A stretch of 64,000 nt of DNA from positions 1,504,001-1,568,000 of the forward strand of contig OY763927.2 of NCBI GenBank assembly GCA_963667665.2, in the 5' to 3' direction. Below are positions 28,342-39,774 of this stretch, one piece after another. Under the pieces are notes generated by a model, which was given only the letters and a program-made list of their open reading frames with translations, was not told the origin of the DNA and ran no database searches. A program made the position numbers and the translations under genes. Within the stretch, counting starts at the first letter, position 1. Each line of letters starts with the position of its first letter. The stretch comes from Nitrosopumilus sp. Its GTDB lineage: Archaea; Thermoproteota; Nitrososphaeria; Nitrososphaerales; Nitrosopumilaceae.

Positions 28342-29058
28342 TTGGGAAAAGTTTTTGCTGTTGGTGTTGGACCGGGTTCATCAAAATATGTAACTGAAAT
28401 TGTAAAAGAGATTATTCAAAATTGTGATATTGTGATTGGTTACAAATACACACTAAAGACAATAGAGAATCTAATTGAGGGAAAAGAGATCTATGAAATT
28501 ACCATGAAAGATCAGGAAGAGTCATATCAAAAAATTCTTCCTAAGCTTGGCAATAGAAAATTAGTAATTCCATTTACAGGAGATGTGAATTTTTCTGAAT
28601 CAGAAGTTGTTGATAGATTAATTGAGATTTTTGGTGACGTGGAAATTATTCCAGGCATTAGTTCAATTCAAGTTGCTGCATCAAGAGCCAAAGTCCCTCT
28701 TGATAAATCCAAAGTAATTACAATGCATGTTACAACCAAAATTGAAGATAAGAAATTAGAATTACAAAAGGCATTGATTGATGGTTTTAGTGTGATTTTA
28801 GTTCCAAGACCTTGGCCAAAACAACCAGACAAGCACTTTATGCCTTCAGAGATAGCAGTTTATCTTCGAGAAAATAATTTTGATACTGCAAAGATGAAGG
28901 TTCATGTTTTTGAGGCAATAACTACTGAAAATGAAACCAGTTTTGTAGGAACTGTAAAAGATTTGGAAAGAAAAGAGTTTTCTGATTTATCAGTAATGGT
29001 GTTTAATCAAACAAGTTTGGATTCATACATGAATTACAGATGGCAGTGGGAAAACTAA
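28342..29058 (+). CDS. cbiE: cobalt-precorrin-7 C5-methyltransferase
   Basis: VGVGPG, FTGD, IIPGISSIQVA tetrapyrrole methylase motifs. Confidence 0.8.
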   Translation: MGKVFAVGVGPGSSKYVTEIVKEIIQNCDIVIGYKYTLKTIENLIEGKEIYEITMKDQEESYQKILPKLGNRKLVIPFTGDVNFSESEVVDRLIEIFGDVEIIPGISSIQVAASRAKVPLDKSKVITMHVTTKIEDKKLELQKALIDGFSVILVPRPWPKQPDKHFMPSEIAVYLRENNFDTAKMKVHVFEAITTENETSFVGTVKDLERKEFSDLSVMVFNQTSLDSYMNYRWQWEN

Positions 29059-29963
29059 TTACCCAAGTTTTGTCCTTGCCCAAAAACTAAATTATCAGAA
29101 TCTGGAAATACATATGCTACAATTCTCATCCAATGATAATCTGGATCATATAGTCTGTAAAATCCCATATCATCAAATGTAATATCTACTGATTCTCCTG
29201 GTGCAATATCTCCAGTTGAAATTCTGTTATCTGGTGTAAATGGAATATAACGATCATTGTTTTCTTTTCCGCTAATAATACTGTGAGATACTACATCTTC
29301 ATTTACTATTGTAATGGTAGTACCAGGTTCAATTGAAATTCTATCTTGTGAGAAATAACTCAATCTAGTAGGATCTGATGTATTTTGAGCTTTACCTGTA
29401 CCAACATAACTATCTGACCCCGAAATTAAAGATGAGCCTTTAAGAATGCGCAATGTAAGATAATTTGATTCTTCAGACTCTGTAGAAGTTGTGGTAATTT
29501 TTGAGAGTGTAGATAATTTTGTTGTGTAAATTACTTTGTATGTATCATCAGGAGTTGTAATTCTTCCAGTAAAACCATAAACTGATGCATCTTTGCTTTC
29601 TTCAACTAATCTTCCAAAAAAGCTAATTGAGGTATCAAGTCCGCTTGAACTCTCAATATTTCCATTAATTCTAATGTAACGACCTTCACGCAAAAATTTT
29701 CCTTCTAAATCAGTAATTGCAAATTCATCAGCATTTAGAGTAATAAAACCATCTTCAATTAGAAAGTTAATTGTACTTCCACGTTGTTGTTGTGAAGACA
29801 AACCAATATCAATTTCTGAAATATTAATTGATTCTTCAGTAACTGCAAATCCAGAACCTTCTAAAAGAAATGCCTGATTCTGAGAAATTTCAGCAAATGA
29901 TTCATTGATAAAATATCCTGATGAAACAACAAGTAATGCTAATAGTGTTATAGCTGCCTTCAC
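29055..29963 (-). CDS. exported protein with C-terminal cupredoxin-like domain
   Basis: Signal peptide; ISIEPGTTITIVNEDVVSHSI and GESVDITFDDMGFYRLYDPDYHWM. Confidence 0.75.
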   Translation of the reverse strand: MKAAITLLALLVVSSGYFINESFAEISQNQAFLLEGSGFAVTEESINISEIDIGLSSQQQRGSTINFLIEDGFITLNADEFAITDLEGKFLREGRYIRINGNIESSSGLDTSISFFGRLVEESKDASVYGFTGRITTPDDTYKVIYTTKLSTLSKITTTSTESEESNYLTLRILKGSSLISGSDSYVGTGKAQNTSDPTRLSYFSQDRISIEPGTTITIVNEDVVSHSIISGKENNDRYIPFTPDNRISTGDIAPGESVDITFDDMGFYRLYDPDYHWMRIVAYVFPDSDNLVFGQGQNLGN

Positions 29964-30072
29964 GATTAATTTGTCATTTAATTTGGTTTATAATTTACTA
30001 CTAAATTATTTTAGATGTAACATATAGTATATCTAAACTCGAGCCTGTACTAGCAAACATACTCTAAATAAT

Positions 30073-30609
30073 TTAGAATCCAGGCATCTCAAGACCTTCT
30101 GTTTGGGCCAATTCGATCATGTAGAATTCAAGATATCCTCCTACCAAAAGAAGTGCCACAACAATTCCAATCTCTATAATTGTTGGTTTGATAAATGAAG
30201 AAAGACTGATCTTTTTGATTACTGCTCGAATTAGTATGAAACTTCTAGAGATACCTATAGAGTATGCAGTAATTTCCATCAAGCCAAATGGTAATAAGAA
30301 AAGAATTGAAAGTGGTGGTATTTCTCCTATTTCAGGAACAGTAATAGCAATTGCTGCAAAAGCAAATCCTGTAGACCAAGCAGAGAACAATCCCCATGCA
30401 ACCCCAAATCCTGGAATAAACATTGGTAGTGCAATAGTCAAGTTATGAGTAAAAATTCCAAATGCATCAATATCTAAAACAAGTTCTTCAAATTCAGACA
30501 TGAAAGCTTCTGCGTCTTCTTCACTTACGGAAGTCATTGAGCCTAACTGAAATGCTGCAGCAAAAATTCCTAAAAATATGAAAAATAAGATTATTCTGAT
30601 TTTATTCAC
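30073..30609 (-). CDS. SpoIIM/DUF95-family membrane protein
   Basis: IFTHNL, PFGLMEI, GGYLE. Confidence 0.8.
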   Translation of the reverse strand: MNKIRIILFFIFLGIFAAAFQLGSMTSVSEEDAEAFMSEFEELVLDIDAFGIFTHNLTIALPMFIPGFGVAWGLFSAWSTGFAFAAIAITVPEIGEIPPLSILFLLPFGLMEITAYSIGISRSFILIRAVIKKISLSSFIKPTIIEIGIVVALLLVGGYLEFYMIELAQTEGLEMPGF

Positions 30610-30673: not shown

Positions 30674-32134
30674 ATGATATTTTTTGATATGAAAAAGGAA
30701 CTGACCTTTGTATTAAACTATGCATTAAACAAAGGATTTCAAATTCATCCAGATGCTTTTAAAATTTTAGAAAATTTTGATGTTAAAAAATTAGAGAAGA
30801 TCATAAAGGAAATAGTTAGAGAAAAGACCAAACAGAAATTATTCCAAATTAACCAAGACGATTTAGAAACATATCTTGGAATTAAAGAGGATCCAACACT
30901 ACAAAGTGAAATCAAAGTATTATCTGATCCTACGACAAAAATTACAACAGGTGAGGGAGTTAAAGGATATAATGCATTATTTTCAAGTCGTTTTAACAAA
31001 CTAAAACGAATAATTTCAGATAGACCAGAATCAAAAAAACTCAAATCTATTGCATCTGTAAAAACCACAAAACAGAATGGTGATATGTACGTCTGCGGTC
31101 TTGTCACTTCAAGAAGTGTTGAGAGAAATATCACAAAGTTGGTTTTAGAGGATCCATCAGGCTTGTTTGAGGGAATTGTTTTTGATAATGAATTACAAAA
31201 AACTGTAGGTACTCTTCTAACTGATCAATTCGTTATGGTAAGAACAGGTTTGGGAAAGAATTCTGGGTTTATTATAAAGGATATAATTCAGCCAGATATT
31301 CCAGACCAGGCCATCAACAAATCAGAATCTGAAGTATATGCAGTCTTTCTTTCAGATCTTCATATTGGTAGCAGGTACTTTATGGAGAAGGAATTCACAG
31401 AATTTGTTTCGTGGCTATCAAGTCCAGATCCAGTAGCAAGAAAAATTCGTTTTGTTCTAATTGGTGGAGATGTAGTTGATGGAGTTGGAATATACCCTAA
31501 TCAGGATAAAGAATTGATTTGCCAAACCATAGAGGAGCAGCTAAAAAAGGCAGTAGATTTGATTGATAAAATTCCAAAAAATATGAAGGTGATTATAATG
31601 CCTGGAAACCATGACCCTGGTAGAAGAGCCCTTCCACAACCAGCTATCCCAAAAAAATACAATTCAAGTTTGTGGGAAATGGAAAATGTGGTTATGGTTG
31701 GAAACCCAGCAGTAGTCTCATTGAATGGTGTAAAGGTAATGATGTTTCATGGACAAAGTATTGATGATATTGTAAAAACCACGCCTGGTCTGAGTTACGA
31801 CAAACCAACTAATGTAATGAAACATCTTCTCAAAGCTAGACACCTAAGTCCAATTTATGGTAGCCAAACACCCATTGCACCAGAGATGCAAGATCTTTTA
31901 GTAATTGAGGATGTTCCAGATATCTTTCATGTGGGTCATGTTCACAGAGCAGAATTGGATATGTATAAGGGAATTTTACTGATAAATTCTGGTTCATGGC
32001 AAAAACAGACACCTTTCCAGGCAAGTGTTGGGATGACCCCAAATCCAGGAATTGCACTAATGGTTAATCTAAAAACTTTCCAAGTATTTCATCAAAATTA
32101 TAATTTAGAGTTAGATAATATCCTTCAAAGTTAG
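30674..32134 (+). CDS. polB: DNA polymerase D small subunit DP1
   Basis: SDLHIGS, GDVVDG, PGNHD, FHGQS, GHVH phosphoesterase motifs plus OB fold. Confidence 0.95.
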   Translation: MIFFDMKKELTFVLNYALNKGFQIHPDAFKILENFDVKKLEKIIKEIVREKTKQKLFQINQDDLETYLGIKEDPTLQSEIKVLSDPTTKITTGEGVKGYNALFSSRFNKLKRIISDRPESKKLKSIASVKTTKQNGDMYVCGLVTSRSVERNITKLVLEDPSGLFEGIVFDNELQKTVGTLLTDQFVMVRTGLGKNSGFIIKDIIQPDIPDQAINKSESEVYAVFLSDLHIGSRYFMEKEFTEFVSWLSSPDPVARKIRFVLIGGDVVDGVGIYPNQDKELICQTIEEQLKKAVDLIDKIPKNMKVIIMPGNHDPGRRALPQPAIPKKYNSSLWEMENVVMVGNPAVVSLNGVKVMMFHGQSIDDIVKTTPGLSYDKPTNVMKHLLKARHLSPIYGSQTPIAPEMQDLLVIEDVPDIFHVGHVHRAELDMYKGILLINSGSWQKQTPFQASVGMTPNPGIALMVNLKTFQVFHQNYNLELDNILQS

Positions 32135-33313
32135 ATCATCTTTGAAAGTCTTTTTTACCATTTCAGATGAGATTGTAAGTTTGTATTTTTTTGTCCTACC
32201 ATGAATTCCTTGATGAATCAGTTTGCCAGTAATAATTCCAGATAATTCAATTTCACTTAACATTTGTGTAACTCTTCTTTGGGTTAGCTCATCCCGACCA
32301 ACTGTCTTGCAGAGATTTTTGTATGATGAATAAATCTCTCCTGTGGAAGAGTCTTTTGCCTTCATAATTGCAAGAATGACCAGTTTTTCATGAAGCGGAT
32401 ATGATTTCAGAGAAGTTTCTTCTTTGTTTTCTTCAATTTTTAGAGAGGCTTCTCTAACATGTTCAGCTGTAACTTTCTTTGATTGTTGCCTTTCTGCAAT
32501 CTCTCCTGCTACACGAATTAGATCAATTGCCCTACGAGCATCACCGTGTTCTCCTCCTGCTAGTGCAGCACATAGATTTAGGGCTGAATCTTCAACAGTG
32601 TTCTCAATAAAAGCCTCGTTAATTCTCTCTTCAAGAATTGTTTTAATTTGTTCAACATTATAATTAGTAAAGACAATCTCTTCCTCACCCAGACTACTAA
32701 TTACTCTAGGATCTAGTTTTTCTTTGAATGTAAGGTCGTTGGAAATTCCAACCAAAGTTAGGGAGCCTTGTTTTAGTCGCTCATTTGCTCTTGTTAATTG
32801 GTATAAGATGTCCTTACCTGTTTTTGAGACTAGTTGGGCTAGATAGTCAATCTCATCAATTACAAAAATTGCGTTAAGTTTTCCTTCATCAATTTTATTG
32901 AGAATTCTTTTGAAGACCTCACTTATTGCAAGACCAGTTATGGGTAATTCCTTCTCATTTAGATTTAATTGTCTGCCTAGGCTGACTAATAATCCGTATA
33001 GTGTAGTCTCTTCTTTAGAGTTTGAATAAACGAGTTTAATTGGAAAATTTGATTTTTCTACTCTCTCTTGTATTTTAGAAATTACTTTTTTTACAACTAA
33101 TGTTTTACCAATTCCAGGTTTTCCATATACCAAAAGATTTGATGGTCTAGATTGTTTTAGTATTGGTAATAGTGATTGGGTAACTTGTTCTTGTTCAGTA
33201 TTTCTATGTTGGATGGTATTTGGTATGTATGATGTTTGAAGAATATCTCTGTTTTTTATTATAGACTTGCCTGATTCTGCTGCATCAAGTAATCTATCTA
33301 TTGGATCTGACAT
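32111..33313 (-). CDS. cdc6: Cdc6/Orc1 replication initiator
   Basis: Walker A GKPGIGKT, IDEID, GDARRAIDL, C-terminal wHTH; ATG at 33313. Confidence 0.96.
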   Translation of the reverse strand: MSDPIDRLLDAAESGKSIIKNRDILQTSYIPNTIQHRNTEQEQVTQSLLPILKQSRPSNLLVYGKPGIGKTLVVKKVISKIQERVEKSNFPIKLVYSNSKEETTLYGLLVSLGRQLNLNEKELPITGLAISEVFKRILNKIDEGKLNAIFVIDEIDYLAQLVSKTGKDILYQLTRANERLKQGSLTLVGISNDLTFKEKLDPRVISSLGEEEIVFTNYNVEQIKTILEERINEAFIENTVEDSALNLCAALAGGEHGDARRAIDLIRVAGEIAERQQSKKVTAEHVREASLKIEENKEETSLKSYPLHEKLVILAIMKAKDSSTGEIYSSYKNLCKTVGRDELTQRRVTQMLSEIELSGIITGKLIHQGIHGRTKKYKLTISSEMVKKTFKDDLTLKDII

Positions 33314-33314
33314 A

Positions 33315-33785
33315 CTCACACACCTTTGTTTCCTATCAATAATATCATAACCATATTTGAATTAAGAGGGTATAGAAGAGAATAGTAACTCTAGTTTAGT
33401 TTGTAATTAATTATTTTTAGTTAGATTTTGATTTTCTTAAAAAAAAAATTATAAAAAATATAGAGTGGAAAGATTGGTGTGTGAGTTGAATCTAATTTTT
33501 ACTGTAAAGTTAACAGTTTGTTAATTTACTGTTATGAAATTATACAAAAAGCCTGTTTTGACCCTTTAATTTCCACTCCAGGCGTTAAGATTGATGTTAA
33601 CACTGTGAATAAACATGAAATTACCCCTTTAATTTCCACTCCAGGCATGAATATTTCCTAATTAGAGGGGATTTTACATGGGAGTGTGTTAATAACAAAA
33701 ATATGGTTAGGCGTGACCTACGCAGTCAATGTTAACAAACAAACTAGTTAACAAACATTCTTGGATCAATTGAATTGTTAACATT
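33315..33785. other. replication origin (oriC) with ORB elements and AT-rich unwinding element
   Basis: Exact 22-bp repeat CCCTTTAATTTCCACTCCAGGC at 33562-33583 and 33625-33646 (reverse complement contains GAGTGGAAATTAAAGGG, ORB-like); ORB-like inverted pair 33315-33333 / 33467-33485 flanks an A/T tract; directly upstream of cdc6. Confidence 0.88.
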
Positions 33786-33805
33786 TGATCCTTTAGATCT
33801 CAAAG

Positions 33806-34192
33806 ATGGCTAAAAAACGTATTCGAATAGACATGAAGGACTCAGATGGTGCACGATTTGACATCAAAATAGAAGGTAATGTTACCAGAGAAAAGGTTCT
33901 CAAAATATTTGAAATGATGGACTTGATGAATATTGAAGAAGAACAAGAAATAATAAATATGGATTCAGTAGGCTCAAAAATTTGGCATATTGTGGATAAA
34001 TTCTTCCCAATAGGTAAATTTACCTCCACGACCATTCTTGAAAAATACGAAGATGAATTCAACGAACCAGTAAAACTTAGTATAATATCGACCTATTTGT
34101 CACGTTTTTCATCAAAAGGTAAGATTGATAGAGTTAGAACAGGTCGTGAATGGACCTATCAAGCCATTAAGATAGGCCAAAAACAACGATAA
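33806..34192 (+). CDS. origin-adjacent winged-helix protein
   Basis: FTSTTILEKYEDEFNEPVKLSIISTYLSRF and REWTY wHTH pattern. Confidence 0.8.
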   Translation: MAKKRIRIDMKDSDGARFDIKIEGNVTREKVLKIFEMMDLMNIEEEQEIINMDSVGSKIWHIVDKFFPIGKFTSTTILEKYEDEFNEPVKLSIISTYLSRFSSKGKIDRVRTGREWTYQAIKIGQKQR

Positions 34193-34196
34193 CTAA

Positions 34197-34358
34197 TCAA
34201 GAAATGGTTATTTTTCTGACAATTAACCGATCTTTTTCAAGAATCAACTTAACATATTCACCTTTTTGAACATCCATGTATTTCCTAAATTGTTTAGGAA
34301 TAGAAATTGTCCCGGCTGAGGTAATTTTTACCAAAACTTCATTCTCTTGAACAGACAT
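34197..34358 (-). CDS. AbrB/MazE/SpoVT-family DNA-binding protein; missing from the ORF track
   Basis: Manual translation MSVQENEVLVKITSAGTISIPKQFRKYMDVQKGEYVKLILEKDRLIVRKITIS (53 aa). Confidence 0.88.
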   Translation of the reverse strand: MSVQENEVLVKITSAGTISIPKQFRKYMDVQKGEYVKLILEKDRLIVRKITIS

Positions 34359-34474
34359 ATTATAATTATAATCTTATAATATATATAATTTATAATTAAT
34401 AATGAATTGTCGTGTTTTCTTAAAAATTTGAATGAAAGAACAAAAATCTATTCTAGTAAAGGGAAAAGAATCTC

Positions 34475-35077
34475 TTATGCAATTATGGGACTAGATTGAA
34501 CATCATCAACCTTTGCTTTTCCCTTTTCAGTTATTGAATAAGTGTATGGTTTAGTTTCTATATTTCTTTGAACATAACCATCATCAAATAATTTCTTCAT
34601 TAATCTTGAAGTATGTTCTCTACTTTTCTTTAATGTGATTTGTATGTCACGTGATGTCACAGTTTTGTTTGTGATTAAATGCAACACATAATCTGTTGGG
34701 TTTGTGTATTCTATACTAGGAATGCTAGGGGTTGAAACTGGTTTTTCAGACATTACTTTTGGTTTACTAACTTCCTCAACTTCATTCTCTTTGATTTTGT
34801 TATTTACTAATTTTCCTAAGAGTTGTTTTAATTCAAAGTTAGAATCATCTGTTTTAGGCTCAATTCCTTGAATTTCTAAAGCATCTAGGCGTATTTTCAT
34901 GTCAATTAACTGCCTTTCATAGAATTCTAAACGCTCAGATTGTGGAACATCAGTCATTTCACTCTTTGATTTAATGAATGGAAGTACTTTGTAGAATACG
35001 TACAACCCACCTAAACCAACCACAAATGCTAAAATCACACTCAAAATCACCTCAGGATCAGGAATTTCTATTAACAT
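34475..35077 (-). CDS. membrane-anchored coiled-coil/wHTH protein
   Basis: Start MLIEIPDPE; TM VILSVILAFVVGLGGLYVF; coiled coil; C-terminal TSRDIQITLKKSREHTSRLMKKLFDDGYV and YSITEKG. Confidence 0.82.
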   Translation of the reverse strand: MLIEIPDPEVILSVILAFVVGLGGLYVFYKVLPFIKSKSEMTDVPQSERLEFYERQLIDMKIRLDALEIQGIEPKTDDSNFELKQLLGKLVNNKIKENEVEEVSKPKVMSEKPVSTPSIPSIEYTNPTDYVLHLITNKTVTSRDIQITLKKSREHTSRLMKKLFDDGYVQRNIETKPYTYSITEKGKAKVDDVQSSPIIA

Positions 35078-35323
35078 CACAAATTTACGCCTATGTTGTG
35101 ATTTATCGTGATTGAACAACATTATTTTACACTTTAGATTAACATACTGACACATACAATCACAAACACATCAACTACTTTTTCATATTCGTCACCACAA
35201 ACATCACATATTACATGCCTTTCGAATAGTCATATCTATCACCCTAGTGATTTGTTCTTCTCTTTCTGGAAATATATCACCATCATTCATCACACGAATG
35301 TTCTCTGAAAGTTTTGATATCAC
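35034..35323. repeat. dense ATCAC/GTGAT motif array
   Basis: 12 copies in ~290 bp, plus five RTCAC-type copies at 34635-34675. Confidence 0.7.
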
Positions 35324-35566
35324 ATCAATATCATCAGGTAAGAGTATGCCTAGACCACGAAAAAGTATGATTGAATAGAATAATGCAATTAATTTCTCTC
35401 TTGACTGCCCAACTTGCCTGTAATATGCTCCTCTTGATATAGAAAATTTAGATTCTAGAAGATCCTTCTGATTTAAAATAATTTCAATTTGTCGCTCTGT
35501 AAATAGTGATTTTTTGATGATTTGACGAATAATATTGTTAAAATTAGATTCTTCAGACTCTGCCAT
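35204..35566 (-). CDS. HTH protein (Tfx/sigma-70 region 4-like)
   Basis: LFTERQIEII and ISRGAYYRQVGQSREKL. Confidence 0.75.
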   Translation of the reverse strand: MAESEESNFNNIIRQIIKKSLFTERQIEIILNQKDLLESKFSISRGAYYRQVGQSREKLIALFYSIILFRGLGILLPDDIDVISKLSENIRVMNDGDIFPEREEQITRVIDMTIRKACNM

Positions 35567-35631
35567 AGCTATACAAATCTGTATACTGACATTCCAATTA
35601 AACTTTAAAGAGTCATCTACAAACCTCCACT

Positions 35632-36384
35632 ATGACTGGAAATAAAGTTGAATCGTTCCTAAAATCGGAATTAAAAAAGAAAAATGCGTTATTGTTTGTA
35701 TTAATTGATTCTGAGGTATCACAATTAAAAACATCAAGTAAGCTTGCAAAAGATGTTGAAAAGATAGGGGCTTCTGCAATCCTAGTTGGAGGTTCCTCAG
35801 CCACAGATCAGATTGAGATGGCTCAAGTGGTTAAAGGCATCAAAAAAGGTGTTAAAATTCCAATTATCTTATTTCCTGGAAATGTTACTGGTGTTGTGCC
35901 TGATGCTGATGCAATCTTATTTAGCTCTCTAATGAACTCAGAGAATCCATACTTTATCACACAAGCACAAGCATTAGGTGCTCCAAGTGTTCTCAAATTT
36001 GGTTTAGAGCCACTTCCTACTGCTTATTTGGTGATAGGAGATGGAACCTCTGCTTGGTTTGTAGGTTCAGCACGAGGAATTCCATTTGAAAAACCAAAAA
36101 TTGCAGCTGCATATGCCCTTGCTGCTCAATTCCTTGGTATGAGATTTGTATATTTAGAAGCAGGTTCTGGTGCAAAAACCAGTGTTACACCAGAGATGGT
36201 TAAGACAGTAAGGCGTGCTTTTAATGGTTTCTTGATAGTAGGAGGAGGAATTAAAGATGTTAAAACTGCCCAGAGTTTGGTCAAAGCAGGAGCCAACGCT
36301 TTGGTTATTGGGACATTCCTTGAAAAAGGAGGAAGCATCAAAAAACTCCAAGAAATAGCAAAAGTAATTCAAAGAAGCAAGTAG
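35632..36384 (+). CDS. geranylgeranylglyceryl phosphate synthase
   Basis: LVGGS, ILFPG, YLEAGSGA, VGGGI. Confidence 0.93.
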   Translation: MTGNKVESFLKSELKKKNALLFVLIDSEVSQLKTSSKLAKDVEKIGASAILVGGSSATDQIEMAQVVKGIKKGVKIPIILFPGNVTGVVPDADAILFSSLMNSENPYFITQAQALGAPSVLKFGLEPLPTAYLVIGDGTSAWFVGSARGIPFEKPKIAAAYALAAQFLGMRFVYLEAGSGAKTSVTPEMVKTVRRAFNGFLIVGGGIKDVKTAQSLVKAGANALVIGTFLEKGGSIKKLQEIAKVIQRSK

Positions 36385-36396
36385 TAGAATTGTATT

Positions 36397-39300
36397 ATGT
36401 CAGATAATGATGCAATTTCTCGTATTAGTGATATTGAGATGCCAGATTATTATCGTGATTATTACTCAAATCTCACAACTGAAACAGTTTCCATATTTGA
36501 GAAAGCAGCAGTTGCAAAATCAAGTTTGGTAGACTCTTCAGGAATAATCGAGCCTAAAATTGCATTTGATTTGGCAGATCGAGTTTCTAAAATGCACGAA
36601 ATTGATATTGCTGAACCACTTAGAGAACTACTAAAAATAAATGGAAAGGAGCTTTCTGCACTTATTTTATCAAAGGAAATTGCTCTTGGTAAATACTCTC
36701 TTTCTGATGCCACCTTAGAAGACAAACTAGATCTTGCAGTTCGTGTAGGGTTGGCAATTGTTACAGAAGGAGTTACCATAGCTCCTTTACAAGGAATTAG
36801 TGAAGTAAAGATAAAGAAAAACAAAGATGGTACGGAATATCTTTCAGTTTCTATTGCAGGACCTATGCGTTCAGCAGGTGGAACAGAATCTGCTGTAACA
36901 ATACTGATTGCAGATCATGTTAGAAAGGCAGTTGGGTTAACAAAATACCAAGCAAATTCTTTTGATGATGAAACTGGTAGATTTGTAGAGGAATTAAGAA
37001 TTTATGAAAGAGAGGCCAGTAGTTTTCAATTTCATATATTAGATGAAGATATTGAACATGTCATTTCTCACCTTCCAGTTGAATTAGATGGAGTAGATAC
37101 GGATCCATTTGAGGTTGTAAATCACAAATCTATGGCTCGCATCAAAACTGATAGGGTTAGAGGAGGTGCTTTACGAGTCTTAAATGATGGATTGATTGGA
37201 AGATCTAAAAAACTTCTCAAAAGGATTGAACTGTACAATCTAGATGGCTGGGAATGGCTCAATGATCTTAAAGGCGTAGTTCAAACAGGTGAAAATCAGG
37301 AAGACGCAGCTGCTAAAAGAATGCGTGAAGTAATTACAGGAAGATCAGTCTTATCCATGCCTAAAAAGTTAGGTGGGTTTCGATTAAGATATGGAAGAGC
37401 ATGTAATACTGGTTTTGCAGCAGTAGGCATTCATCCTGTATTAGGCGAAATTTTAGATCATACCATAGTTGTAGGAACACAAGTAAAAATTGATGTTCCA
37501 GGAAAAGGAGCAACTGTTGCTTTTGTTGATTCTATTGATACTCCAATAGTTCGTCTAAAAAATGGAAGTGTGGTTAAGATTAGAGACATTAAACATGGAT
37601 TAGAAATTAAAAACGAAATTGAAAAGATCCTACATTTAGGAGATATTCTAATTTCATTTGGAGACTTTCTTGAAAACAATGCTCAACTTATTCCTTCAGG
37701 ATATGTTGAGGAATTTTGGATAGAAGAACTAAAACAAAAAATCCAAAAATATGAGCCTGATGATCAATTCATTAAACAATTTCTGACTAGAATACCCTCA
37801 ATAGATGAAGCCCTGAAAATTTCCCTTGACTTTCAAATTCCACTTCACCCACATTATCTATATTTCTGGGATAAAATATCATCAAAAGAATTTGCCCAAC
37901 TTTTAGAACCAAAAAAAGTTACTGAAACATCAATTGAATACTTTATACAAACCAAAAAAATTCTTGAAAAATTGGGAGTTCCTCATAAAGTTGAAAATGA
38001 AACTATAATCTTAGAAAATCTAGAGGCAAAAATTTTCTACAATCTATTGTTTAGAGAAAAACCAACAATTAGTGATTTATCAATTCCAAAAATTCTATCA
38101 AAATCATCAGGAATTCAAATTAAAAATAAATTCTCAACATCAATTGGAGTTCGAATTGGAAGACCTGAAAAAGCAGCTGCTAGACAAATGAAACCTCCAA
38201 CTCATGTCTTATTTCCAGTTAGTGATAAAGGAGGACCCACTAGAGATCTTCTAAAAGCATCAAGAAATGAACATTTCTTTACTAACATATTCAATAGATT
38301 TTGTAACGAATGTGATGAACCATCTATAGGCATAAAATGCTCTAAATGTGGCACTAAAACAACAATCATCTACAAATGTCCTAACTGTAGAGATACTCTC
38401 AAAGAACCATATTGTGAAAAATGTAAACGTAAAGCACAAACTCATTCCCACAAAGAATTTCCACTAAAAACAAAATTACTATCCGCTCAGGAAAAGATGG
38501 GATTACGTGTTAAAGAACCATTCAAAGGCGTCAAAGAGCTAATTAACCAAGATAGAATTGCTGAACCTCTAGAAAAAGGAATAGTACGTCAAAACTTTGG
38601 ACTTACAGTCTTCAAAGATGGGACTGTTAGATTTGATGCAACAAATTCTCCCTTAACTCAATTCAAACCATCATGGATTGGAACATCAATTCAGAAACTA
38701 AAGGAGCTTGGATATTCTCATGACATAGATGGAAAACCAATTACAGACTTGGATCAGATAATTGAACTTCGTATGCAGGATGTGATAATTCCTTATGAAA
38801 GCGGAAACTATCTAGTTTCTACCTGTAAATACATTGATACTCTTTTAGTGAAATTCTATGGAAAATCTAAATTTTACAAAGTAAAGAATACTGAAGAGCT
38901 TATCGGTCATTTAGTAATTGGGCTAGCTCCACATACTTCTGTTGGAATCGTAGGACGAATCATTGGATATACAGAAACCCATGTTTGTTTTGGAACTCCA
39001 AACTGGCACTCTGCAAAAAGAAGAGATGCTGATGGTGATGCTGATTCTATAATGCTTCTAATGGATAGTTTACTTAATTTCTCAAGACAGTTTCTTTCTG
39101 ATAGAATAGGTGGGCTAATGGATGCACCATTACTTATTCAACCACTTGTTTTACCTCATGAATCTCAACCTCAAGCACACAATCTTGAAGTTACAAAGTC
39201 ACTTCCTTTAGAATTCTTCGAGTCTACACTTGAACAGATCAAAGCATCAGACGTGTCATCTGTAGAAATTATAAAATCACGTCTAGAAACTGAAAGACAG

Positions 39301-39774
39301 TTTTATGATTATTTCTTTACACATTCAACTTCATCTCTAACCACTTCAAAATCTCGTAGTGCCTATTCTACACTTGGTTCAATGCTTGACAAATTTGATA
39401 TGCAAATTAGAAATGCAGAATTAATTGATGTGGTAAATCCTTCCGAAATTGTTTCAAATGTAATTTCAACACACCTAGTTCCAGATATAATGGGAAATCT
39501 TAGAGCGTATGCAAGACAAAACTTTAGGTGCACAGGCTGTGGAAAATCATTTCGTCGAATGCCTCTAATTCAAACATGTGTCTGTGGTCATAAACTAATT
39601 GCTACAATTACAAGAGGCTCTGTTGAAAAATATCTAAAACTTGCTAAAAGACTTGTTGAGAAATATGATGTTGGTGAATATCAAAAAGGAAGAATTCATG
39701 CTCTATCAGATGAAATTGAATTAGTATTTGGTAAGAGTAAAGGTGACCAATCACTTCTTACTGATTACGCCTAG
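36397..39774 (+). CDS. polC: DNA polymerase D large subunit DP2
   Basis: AGPMRSAGGT, GFRLRYGR, catalytic KRRDADGDAD, Zn fingers; no intein. Confidence 0.97.
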   Translation: MSDNDAISRISDIEMPDYYRDYYSNLTTETVSIFEKAAVAKSSLVDSSGIIEPKIAFDLADRVSKMHEIDIAEPLRELLKINGKELSALILSKEIALGKYSLSDATLEDKLDLAVRVGLAIVTEGVTIAPLQGISEVKIKKNKDGTEYLSVSIAGPMRSAGGTESAVTILIADHVRKAVGLTKYQANSFDDETGRFVEELRIYEREASSFQFHILDEDIEHVISHLPVELDGVDTDPFEVVNHKSMARIKTDRVRGGALRVLNDGLIGRSKKLLKRIELYNLDGWEWLNDLKGVVQTGENQEDAAAKRMREVITGRSVLSMPKKLGGFRLRYGRACNTGFAAVGIHPVLGEILDHTIVVGTQVKIDVPGKGATVAFVDSIDTPIVRLKNGSVVKIRDIKHGLEIKNEIEKILHLGDILISFGDFLENNAQLIPSGYVEEFWIEELKQKIQKYEPDDQFIKQFLTRIPSIDEALKISLDFQIPLHPHYLYFWDKISSKEFAQLLEPKKVTETSIEYFIQTKKILEKLGVPHKVENETIILENLEAKIFYNLLFREKPTISDLSIPKILSKSSGIQIKNKFSTSIGVRIGRPEKAAARQMKPPTHVLFPVSDKGGPTRDLLKASRNEHFFTNIFNRFCNECDEPSIGIKCSKCGTKTTIIYKCPNCRDTLKEPYCEKCKRKAQTHSHKEFPLKTKLLSAQEKMGLRVKEPFKGVKELINQDRIAEPLEKGIVRQNFGLTVFKDGTVRFDATNSPLTQFKPSWIGTSIQKLKELGYSHDIDGKPITDLDQIIELRMQDVIIPYESGNYLVSTCKYIDTLLVKFYGKSKFYKVKNTEELIGHLVIGLAPHTSVGIVGRIIGYTETHVCFGTPNWHSAKRRDADGDADSIMLLMDSLLNFSRQFLSDRIGGLMDAPLLIQPLVLPHESQPQAHNLEVTKSLPLEFFESTLEQIKASDVSSVEIIKSRLETERQFYDYFFTHSTSSLTTSKSRSAYSTLGSMLDKFDMQIRNAELIDVVNPSEIVSNVISTHLVPDIMGNLRAYARQNFRCTGCGKSFRRMPLIQTCVCGHKLIATITRGSVEKYLKLAKRLVEKYDVGEYQKGRIHALSDEIELVFGKSKGDQSLLTDYA

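Follow-up and report, generated by a model that had tools for sequence, protein, structure and literature searches.

Bacteria hold replication origins at the cell envelope by means of a cluster of short palindromes at the origin, as with SeqA and the GATC sites of Escherichia coli oriC, or of an array of sites, as with RacA and ram in Bacillus subtilis. In the ParR/parC and TubR/tubC systems, about ten short repeats lie at the promoter of the operon that encodes the DNA-binding protein itself, which in the case of TubR is a winged-helix protein. ToxR and CadC join an N-terminal DNA-binding domain to a sensor domain outside the cell. Little is known about archaeal origin factors beyond Orc1/Cdc6, the first accessory factor, UBP of Sulfolobus, having been reported in 2025, and the positioning and segregation of the chromosome in Thaumarchaeota is an open question. 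Here we analyse a locus of Nitrosopumilus sp. that bears on this question: a block of small genes, with two arrays of short motifs, beside an origin made of orc1/cdc6 and origin recognition boxes (ORBs). The locus lies in a window of 64,000 nt (C1:1504001–1568000, C1 being contig OY763927.2) of a two-contig, 1.89-Mb genome, and feature coordinates below are those of the window.

UBP is described as a small non-initiator protein that binds the ucm motif, which lies between ORBs and on which origin activity depends (Dhanaraju et al. 2025, PMC12141716). According to the same account it has a beta-rich saddle fold that contacts DNA through beta-hairpins, binds more than 300 sites as a nucleoid protein, and was traced to its gene biochemically (PMC12141716); it is the sole archaeal origin accessory factor that we found described. 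Also in Sulfolobus, the winged-helix gene whiP is reported to adjoin oriC3, the origin that it serves (PMC4010727). In Staphylococcus aureus, RicO is reported to bind both the origin-proximal ricS motif and the membrane, holding origins at the cell periphery (bioRxiv 10.64898/2026.03.06.710092). A census of transmembrane transcription regulators gives about four per archaeal genome, with single-pass proteins the commonest and Thermoproteota enriched, and lists Nitrosopumilaceae genomes in its supplement (Demey et al. 2023, PMC10269533).

Results

Conservation of the origin-side genes

The origin lies in the 486-nt spacer between orc1/cdc6 (hereafter cdc6; 32111–33319, minus strand) and a gene for a 128-amino-acid (aa) winged-helix protein (wHTH128; 33806–34192, plus strand), which is divergent from cdc6 over the origin. 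Next to it lie, all on the minus strand, a 53-aa AbrB/SpoVT-domain gene (34197–34358), a gene for a 200-aa protein with a membrane anchor, a coiled coil and a winged helix (34475–35077; the membrane gene) and a gene for an all-helical 120-aa protein (35204–35566; the Tfx-like gene). An earlier note on this DNA had placed four DNA-binding genes directly beside an ORB origin, and the open reading frames of all four were found at these positions.

Genes were sought in 61 genomes of the family Nitrosopumilaceae, in 47 genomes from the rest of the class Nitrososphaeria and in 130 genomes of a phylum sample from outside the class. Synteny was tallied by hand from the result tables; f, G and L numbers are codes for the families, genomes and loci compared. 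The membrane gene was present in 59 of the 61 family genomes, mostly as a single copy, and the two genomes that lacked it are 74% and 88% complete. It lay no more than 2.1 kb from cdc6 and on the same strand in 48 of the 61, and in two more across the start of a circular contig. The remainder comprised four genomes with the two genes on different contig ends and five with greater distances (3.3, 4.3 and 8 kb, and ~60 kb twice within one genus). In the other families of the class the gene was found in 36 of 47 genomes, 23 times within 2 kb of cdc6 and nine times within 3–8 kb, with four cases that could not be judged; none of the six genomes of f8 gave a match. Twenty loci of the class, when fetched, showed the same gene order in f2–f11. 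The 128-aa gene was beside cdc6 in 18 of the 19 class loci that hold cdc6, divergent over 325–800 nt in 16, co-directional in one and 3 kb off in one.

Outside the class, members of the 128-aa, membrane and Tfx-like families were found in 81, 71 and 59 of the 130 genomes, respectively, mostly as single copies. The 128-aa gene was no more than 1 kb from the best cdc6 match in 39 of the 81, and the 128-aa and membrane genes were within 3 kb of each other in 47 genomes. The Tfx-like gene, present in 80 of 151 phylum genomes, usually lies directly upstream of the membrane gene, a position that it held wherever places were compared. Among 19 loci from other classes, several families have a block of the small-subunit gene of DNA polymerase D (PolD), cdc6, a spacer and the 128-aa, membrane and Tfx-like genes, with GGGP synthase in some. 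Families with an apparent three cdc6 copies, or with weak cdc6 matches, contained almost none of the three genes (f29 none, f21 one weak match). One genome counted among the other families (G144) is unpublished; no conclusion depends on it by itself. With the exception of the AbrB gene, the genes are thus retained at this position throughout the class and in numerous families outside it. The synteny check suggested in the earlier note came out positive well beyond Thaumarchaeota, and the lack of conservation next to origins, which that note named as a ground for refutation, was not seen.

The places where the block is broken separate its parts. In G019, G007 and f9 the block is split at the junction of the 128-aa and membrane genes. 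G019 and G044 have GGGP synthase and the membrane and Tfx-like genes ~60 kb away from cdc6 but keep the 128-aa gene beside it. G007 has an 8-kb insertion between the 128-aa and membrane genes (L049, G007:C1:537000–555000), and in f9 the membrane gene is 4–7 kb from cdc6, still adjoining GGGP synthase. The gene most tightly tied to cdc6 and the origin is the 128-aa winged-helix gene and not the membrane one. A separate 3-kb insertion was seen in G146, between cdc6 and the 128-aa gene (L035, C11:129000–143000); this insertion and that in G007 may be integrated elements at the origin.

Other arrangements were found in several families. The 128-aa and membrane genes form a convergent pair 116–194 kb from the best cdc6 match, or on another contig, in f18 (14 genomes) and f35. 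In f13 the Tfx-like gene, the membrane gene and cdc6 stand in a row and the 128-aa gene was not detected; f19 has the 128-aa gene by cdc6 without the membrane gene; and in f30 and f38 the 128-aa and Tfx-like genes are adjacent, also without the membrane gene. It follows that the three genes are tied among themselves and not just to cdc6.

Two arrays of short motifs

The earlier note placed two different short-motif arrays within the same 2.3 kb as the four genes. Both proved real: each is the densest cluster of its own motif in the genome, and each is conserved. The tGTTAACa array consists of five sites, at 33509, 33595, 33730, 33747 and 33776 (33509–33783, unstranded), which are interleaved with the ORBs and extend over the promoter region of the 128-aa gene, to 29 nt before its start codon. 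This interval has five GTTAAC sites, as many as the remaining 63.7 kb of the window taken together. The genome contains 262 GTTAAC sites (0.139/kb), and 289 are expected by a Markov estimate, so that the sequence is neither avoided nor favoured genome-wide. Five sites within 300 bp occur at the origin only, and one other place in the genome has three. Apart from the origin itself, small clusters of this motif were seen at just two places in the genome, both outside the window: C1:1675789–1676032 (three GTTAAC in 243 bp) and C1:1792020–1792092 (four GTTAACA strand-matches in 72 bp).

The consensus of 179 sites in relatives is tGTTAACa. Direct repeats of TTAACA pointing at the 128-aa gene were considered as a description of the array and rejected, as the two orientations were counted 178 and 180 times, which indicates a short palindrome. 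In 44 cdc6-side intergenic regions of the class, 31 of them from one family, GTTAAC reached 6.59/kb (146 in 22,142 nt), 58-fold over the rest of the same loci (0.113/kb; 34 in 301,917 nt). At least three sites were present in 30 of these regions, two in six, one in four and none in four. The 13 regions from outside the family had 3.64/kb, against 0.183/kb elsewhere in their loci. In other classes the cdc6-side regions showed a modest excess of TTAACA or GTTAAC, or TGTGAA repeats, and no single conserved motif.

The GTTAAC cluster could instead be a control element that is read through methylation, comparable to the GATC sites and SeqA in oriC of E. coli, and not a simple protein operator. Its palindromic 6-bp core, clustered only at the origin and not avoided elsewhere, would suit such an element, and among the genes of this genome are one D12-class adenine methylase and about twelve matches to N6/N4 methylases. 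However, the sites are relaxed to the non-palindromic ATTAACA or CTTAACA in some other genera, and methylase sets vary by strain whereas the array is conserved class-wide; we consider this explanation highly improbable. Several of the N6/N4 methylase matches have internal stops, and one pair is an inverted duplicate ~52 kb apart (for example C1:1815449–1817175 and 1868341–1870067).

The second array, with consensus tGTGATd, comprises 12 ATCAC/GTGAT sites (35034–35323, unstranded) and is the densest such cluster in the genome. Its sites are spread over the opening codons of the membrane gene, the 3′ third of the Tfx-like gene and the 126 nt between the two genes. The genome-wide background is 2.35/kb, and eight or more sites in 300 bp occur nowhere else. 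Neither GTTAAC nor ATCAC/GTGAT is over-represented over the window as a whole, the signal being one of clustering. The two motifs are also unmixed: ATCAC is absent from the origin spacer and GTTAACA is absent from 34–36 kb.

The GTGAT array was present, with 6–16 sites in conserved positions, in all 38 loci that have both the Tfx-like and the membrane gene. Part of it is coding sequence, and codon use was compared in 32 distinct Tfx-like orthologues. Codons that lie within motifs are frozen: Val82 is GTG in 29/30, Val92 is GTG in 30/30, Val109 is GTG in 25/31 and Ser96 is AGT in 23/23. Val52 (GTA 15, GTT 8, GTG 4), Val98, Val106 and Val113 of the same protein have mixed codons, and most of its other codons show 1–2 bits of synonymous entropy. 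These frozen synonymous positions are direct evidence of selection on the nucleotide sequence itself.

The broken blocks described above also divide the arrays. In G019 the origin retains nine TTAACA-type sites, and the relocated membrane and Tfx-like genes carry 11 GTGAT sites ~60 kb away. TTAACA-type sites remain between cdc6 and the 128-aa gene in G019, G007 and f9, with the fewest in G007, and the Tfx-like and membrane genes take the GTGAT array with them in the two cases that could be checked (G019 and G007). Linkage groups the tGTTAACa sites with the 128-aa protein and cdc6/oriC, and the TGTGAT sites with the Tfx-like and membrane proteins.

The membrane-anchored winged-helix protein

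The earlier note had described the product of the 34475–35077 gene as a transmembrane (TM), coiled-coil and winged helix–turn–helix (HTH) protein, and this architecture was confirmed. Residues 125–186 match HTH_27 with 25.7 bits (gathering cut-off 22.2), and a hydropathy scan, on which the TM call is based, gave a hydrophobic helix at residues 10–28 (Kyte–Doolittle 2.59 over 19 residues). The TM helix is followed by a short coiled coil, a variable acidic or polar linker and the C-terminal winged helix, and the combination of TM helix, coiled coil and C-terminal winged helix is kept in 26 of 30 orthologues drawn from several classes. An invariant R-E-H..R motif in the recognition helix was evident from the orthologue alignment. 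Because orthologues begin M(M)L/IxEIPD, the start at 35077 is right and the longer reading frame to 35155 is wrong.

In 24 of the 26 anchored orthologues the sequence becomes more positive across the helix (mean net charge −1.12 ahead of it and +1.85 over the 15 residues that follow). This bias fits an N-out/C-in topology, with the winged helix in the cytoplasm. Only ~9 residues would then be outside the cell, so there is no sensor domain.

Public annotation calls the protein a winged-helix DNA-binding protein, a MarR-family regulator or hypothetical; the orthologue of the cultured Nitrosopumilus maritimus is 75% identical. Assignment to the MarR family proper was considered and rejected, since the flanking dimerisation helices are absent, their place being taken by the TM helix, coiled coil and variable linker, and a MarR-length match was not found. 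A profile search of solved-structure sequences returned generic CRP/MarR helices only. With a DNA-binding domain and at least one predicted TM region, the protein fits the architectural class of transmembrane transcription regulators. A related-loci search with a seven-row alignment returned only Nitrosopumilaceae among the best 80.

Two side observations concern this family. Several genomes of one genus in f17 (G185:C12:15363–15869, G265, G227, G234, G213 and G199) have matches with one to three in-frame stops, which may be decaying copies or mis-set frames; the f17 orthologue that was inspected (L062) has no anchor. A 69%-identical copy is encoded on a 4125-nt contig titled as a Lutibacter metagenome-assembled genome (L145, SDWL01000226.1), most likely a mis-binned Nitrosopumilaceae contig.

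The reading of the earlier note, widened here, is that the membrane winged-helix protein is an origin–membrane tether serving positioning or segregation, which binds an origin-proximal array directly or holds the origin through the 128-aa protein. An anchor and a cytoplasmic DNA-binding domain on a long flexible linker, kept over several classes with so few residues outside the cell and no sensor domain, speak for a tether, and the 5–12 sites of arrays that are each unique in the genome exceed the need of a simple operator. In f13 the membrane gene is 0.5–0.8 kb from cdc6 even without the 128-aa gene, the convergent pair with the 128-aa gene is kept in the 14 genomes of f18 even away from cdc6, and RicO of S. 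aureus provides a bacterial precedent as reported. On the other side, the GTTAACA array does not travel with the membrane gene, the anchor has been lost in 4 of the 30 orthologues, and the pair in f18 and f35 stands 116–194 kb from cdc6. Moreover, transmembrane regulators without a tethering role are, by the published census, common in archaea (PMC10269533), and genes of ParA type and with ParB_N exist elsewhere in this genome. We consider a tethering function rather unlikely.

The 128-aa, AbrB and Tfx-like proteins

The product of the 33806–34192 gene, earlier labelled a winged HTH protein, was modelled with a canonical C-terminal winged helix at residues ~52–126 (per-residue model confidence, pLDDT, above 90 for residues 55–120) and a poorly defined N-terminal hairpin–helix part. 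Its best structural match was the Fur DNA-binding domain (VIA Z 11.4, root-mean-square deviation 1.9 over 70 residues). All 50 rows listed by the structure search had a Z of at least 8 over residues ~52–126; those inspected were winged helices, and no family stood out. No specific relation to the winged-helix domains of Cdt1 or Orc stood out in the structure searches either. Foldseek against the PDB gave generic winged-helix rows (best E 5e-3), and profile searches of solved-structure sequences gave no informative match. The one Pfam hit was a sub-threshold match to Penicillinase_R (17 bits, cut-off 22.6), and identification as a BlaI/MecI repressor was rejected as the family model is below its cut-off; six of 19 orthologues matched that model at E ≤0.01, the best at 2.9e-6.

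The AbrB-like call for 34197–34358 was borne out by PF04014 (34.6 bits, cut-off 24.7, E 1.8e-8) and TIGR01439 (35.5 bits, cut-off 28.3). The gene was present in 31 of 35 Nitrosopumilaceae loci and in none of 15 other class loci, and the protein is specific to Nitrosopumilaceae in this survey. A MazE-type antitoxin was considered and rejected, as its neighbours are two winged-helix genes and a PIN- or MazF-like reading frame is not adjacent.

The label of Tfx-like HTH protein is a fair guess at most. In a structure model with five helices (pLDDT 84), residues 16–74 bear a weak resemblance to LuxR/sigma-region-4 HTH units (EsrB, DosR, DesR and several sigma chains), at Z values of 5.4–3.5 that are below the aligner's trust level, and an Atlas lead (score 0.82) points to a cluster in which 14% of members have Sigma70_r4. 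The sequence-family side of the label did not stand: there was no Pfam or NCBIfam match for this protein or for any of 11 orthologues. Foldseek against the PDB gave a best E of 2.9, and profile searches of solved-structure sequences gave no informative match. As judged from the model, a Tfx-like identity is plausible.

Contigs from RNA libraries, in three runs from two studies, cover the 128-aa gene (33840–34276, 33902–34085 and 33955–34155) and the membrane gene (34549–35082, 34650–35070 and 34901–35062). They also cover GGGP synthase and parts of cdc6; most of the Tfx-like gene and of the origin spacer is uncovered, which says nothing either way. At 34012, inside the 128-aa gene, the RNA contig of run X17 reads G where the window has A, probably a strain difference.

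The replication origin and neighbouring genes

Several features of the spacer are those of an Orc1/Cdc6–ORB origin: it adjoins cdc6 and contains repeated ORBs together with an inverted pair around an AT-rich stretch. The inverted ORB-like arms are 28 nt long (33314–33341 and 33459–33486, unstranded) and 79% complementary, with a GAGTGGAAA core that is kept in relatives; the 117-nt AT-rich stretch between them is a putative unwinding element. Two direct ORB-type repeats of 31 nt (33562–33592 and 33625–33655, plus strand) are 90% identical. Exact 13-mer matches to them in the window are confined to the origin, and their TTTCCACT(C/G)(C/G)AG core recurs at the same place class-wide. The repeats presumably correspond to the published ORB consensus. 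Cumulative GC skew of the whole genome has a minimum at ~0.62 Mb and a broad plateau from ~1.53 Mb, the two being separated by roughly half a genome; with the origin at 1.537 Mb, this is indirect evidence of initiation here. Skew inside the 64-kb window was uninformative. For N. maritimus, a review gives a single mapped origin.

The cdc6 gene (TIGR02928, 365 bits; Cdc6_lid and Cdc6_C domains) is the single match in the 1.89-Mb genome. The left edge of the conserved block is the gene for the PolD small subunit (30674–32134, plus strand; PF04042, E 2.5e-23), which adjoins cdc6 in most related loci. Its 3′ end and that of cdc6, on opposite strands, overlap by 24 nt (32111–32134). A CbiX-like gene and a gene for a SpoIIM-like membrane protein (28342–30609), left of the PolD small subunit, are also syntenic in the family and in other families (L034, L035 and L049–L051), which makes the conserved neighbourhood wider than the block considered here.

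On the right, GGGP synthase (35632–36384, plus strand; PF01884, E 2.5e-50; NF003198 above cut-off) is followed after 12 nt by the PolD large subunit (36397–39774, plus strand). Family models thus confirm the earlier placing of the block between the PolD small subunit and cdc6 on the left and GGGP synthase, here with the PolD large subunit, on the right. GGGP synthase catalyses the first committed step of archaeal membrane lipid synthesis, and its apparent co-transcription with a polymerase subunit on the same strand is an odd pairing; it recurs class-wide (L033, L034, L036–L039 and L051), and GGGP synthase is part of the block in three other-class loci.

The reported lack of ParA and ParB genes was upheld for the window: none of the seven CbiA/ParA-family matches of the genome, that family model alone being searched for ParA-type ATPases, lies there or adjoins the DNA-binding genes. 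The two genome matches to ParB_N also lie elsewhere, and none of the four DNA-binding proteins matches that domain. The absence of partition genes applies to the window only, as ParA-type and ParB_N matches exist elsewhere in the genome.

Regulators that are divergent from their own targets are a common arrangement, and the Tfx-like gene and GGGP synthase are divergent with 65 nt between them. The small proteins might thus be ordinary local regulators, the Tfx-like and membrane proteins controlling GGGP synthase and the PolD large subunit (possibly by sensing membrane state) and the 128-aa protein controlling cdc6, with none of them acting on the origin. The public annotation of the membrane protein as a MarR-family or winged-helix regulator agrees with this, and GGGP synthase stays with the membrane and Tfx-like genes when these are off the origin (G019, G007 and f9, and L060, L062 and L064 of other classes). 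Yet in f7 the membrane gene has its place by the origin although GGGP synthase is missing there; the tGTTAACa sites alternate with the ORBs instead of lying at the start of cdc6; and the TGTGAT array is at the far end of the Tfx-like gene, outside the 65-nt divergent promoter region. Single copies in a fixed position across classes would also be unusual for ordinary regulators. We regard this alternative as distinctly unlikely.

Discussion

We tentatively favour, at somewhat less than even confidence, the reading that an old block beside the orc1/cdc6–ORB origin is a dedicated, locally acting module of site-specific DNA-binding proteins. Its order is PolD small subunit, cdc6, oriC, 128-aa gene, AbrB gene (in this family only), membrane gene, HTH-like helical gene, GGGP synthase and PolD large subunit. 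The 128-aa protein would occupy the tGTTAACa sites, and its occupancy could control its own and the cdc6 divergent promoters, or the access of Orc1 and firing at the origin, or both. The Tfx-like protein, the membrane protein or both would occupy the TGTGAT array at their own promoter. The cytoplasmic winged helix of the membrane protein would be carried on a flexible linker of 40–120 residues, and if it is this protein that binds the TGTGAT sites, DNA ~1.5 kb from the ORBs would be placed at the membrane in most of these genomes, either as a function or as a by-product. Membrane tethering of origin-proximal DNA is in this sense possible. The wider proposal, that the membrane winged-helix protein, the origin-bound 128-aa protein and a repeat array together attach the origin region to the membrane in Nitrososphaeria and several further classes, seems to us unlikely. 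If it were true, the locus would be an archaeal form of the origin–membrane attachment of the classic replicon model, inherited with orc1/cdc6, and would couple the start of replication, chromosome positioning and, through the adjacent GGGP synthase/PolD operon, perhaps lipid synthesis.

A number of points weigh against the module as we favour it. The arrays are matched to proteins by linkage alone, and the AbrB protein is as good a candidate for the binder in this family. As there are 257 other GTTAAC sites in the genome, a protein that binds the motif need not be origin-specific. The genomes compared are related, so that the counts are not independent. Synteny extends over the whole neighbourhood, including GGGP synthase and the CbiX- and SpoIIM-like genes, and shared inheritance rather than function may account for some of the linkage. 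In f18, f35, f20, f26, f36 and f38 the genes are 12–580 kb from the best cdc6 match or on other contigs. The N-terminal anchor is absent from four of the 30 orthologues (f17, f24 twice and f18). GTTAAC sites are few or absent in f5, f6 and f11, and f5 and f11 carry GTGAA-type repeats instead, although GTGAA may be part of the local ORB in those two families; both winged-helix proteins differ in these lineages as well, and the change of motif showed no clear tie to changes in the recognition helix. The RNA contigs, finally, carry no level, strand or ends, and DNA carry-over is possible.

The locus offers three single-copy, uncharacterised proteins with candidate binding sites, kept on the origin side over several classes, and the three genes are promising candidates for a part in origin control or positioning. 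The frozen synonymous sites of the Tfx-like gene are, in addition, a clean example of a DNA-level element embedded in coding sequence. A description of these genes beside an origin was not found in the literature searched, most subscription journals being outside its coverage. New here are the finding that both arrays are unique in the genome, the TGTGAT array and the frozen codons within it, the splitting of the arrays at break points, the census of anchor and topology, and the RNA-library contigs.

Among known systems, ParR/parC and TubR/tubC resemble the locus in layout only, as an array at the promoter of a small DNA-binding protein. They differ in that no ParM, TubZ or ParA motor gene is adjacent here and the locus is chromosomal; a TubR chain was among the generic fold matches of the structure search, at rank 32. 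SeqA/GATC and RacA/ram are comparable as a cluster of short palindromes at the origin and as an origin-proximal array of sites, but these systems are bacterial and their proteins unrelated. Compared with ToxR and CadC, the membrane protein has the reverse domain order and almost nothing outside the cell. It shares with the transmembrane transcription regulators a DNA-binding domain and a predicted TM region, by which architecture alone that class is defined (PMC10269533); the census as consulted does not touch on origins. Since it puts about four such regulators in an archaeal genome, the anchor alone is not unusual; the unusual features are that the gene is conserved beside the origin, that the protein has no outside domain, and that the arrays are large and unique.

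RicO, as reported, is alike in that one protein joins a sequence-specific DNA-binding domain to a membrane-binding element. It is a bacterial protein, however, with an N-terminal DNA-binding domain and a C-terminal amphipathic helix rather than an N-terminal TM helix, and its function was shown by experiment whereas tethering here is conjecture. WhiP provides a winged-helix gene next to an origin but is described as a Cdt1-related initiator, whereas the 128-aa protein is a generic winged helix. With UBP and ucm the likeness is a short non-ORB motif interleaved with the ORBs of an archaeal origin. The reported fold of UBP is a beta-rich saddle, whereas the proteins here are modelled as winged-helix or all-helical, and profile searches of solved structures with them returned no UBP chain. 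UBP is also credited with more than 300 sites and its gene was found biochemically, whereas the genes considered here adjoin the origin, the motifs form clusters beside it, and both are known from sequence. We rate the block as a variant of three described kinds of system: origin accessory binders, membrane-bound regulators and origin tethers.

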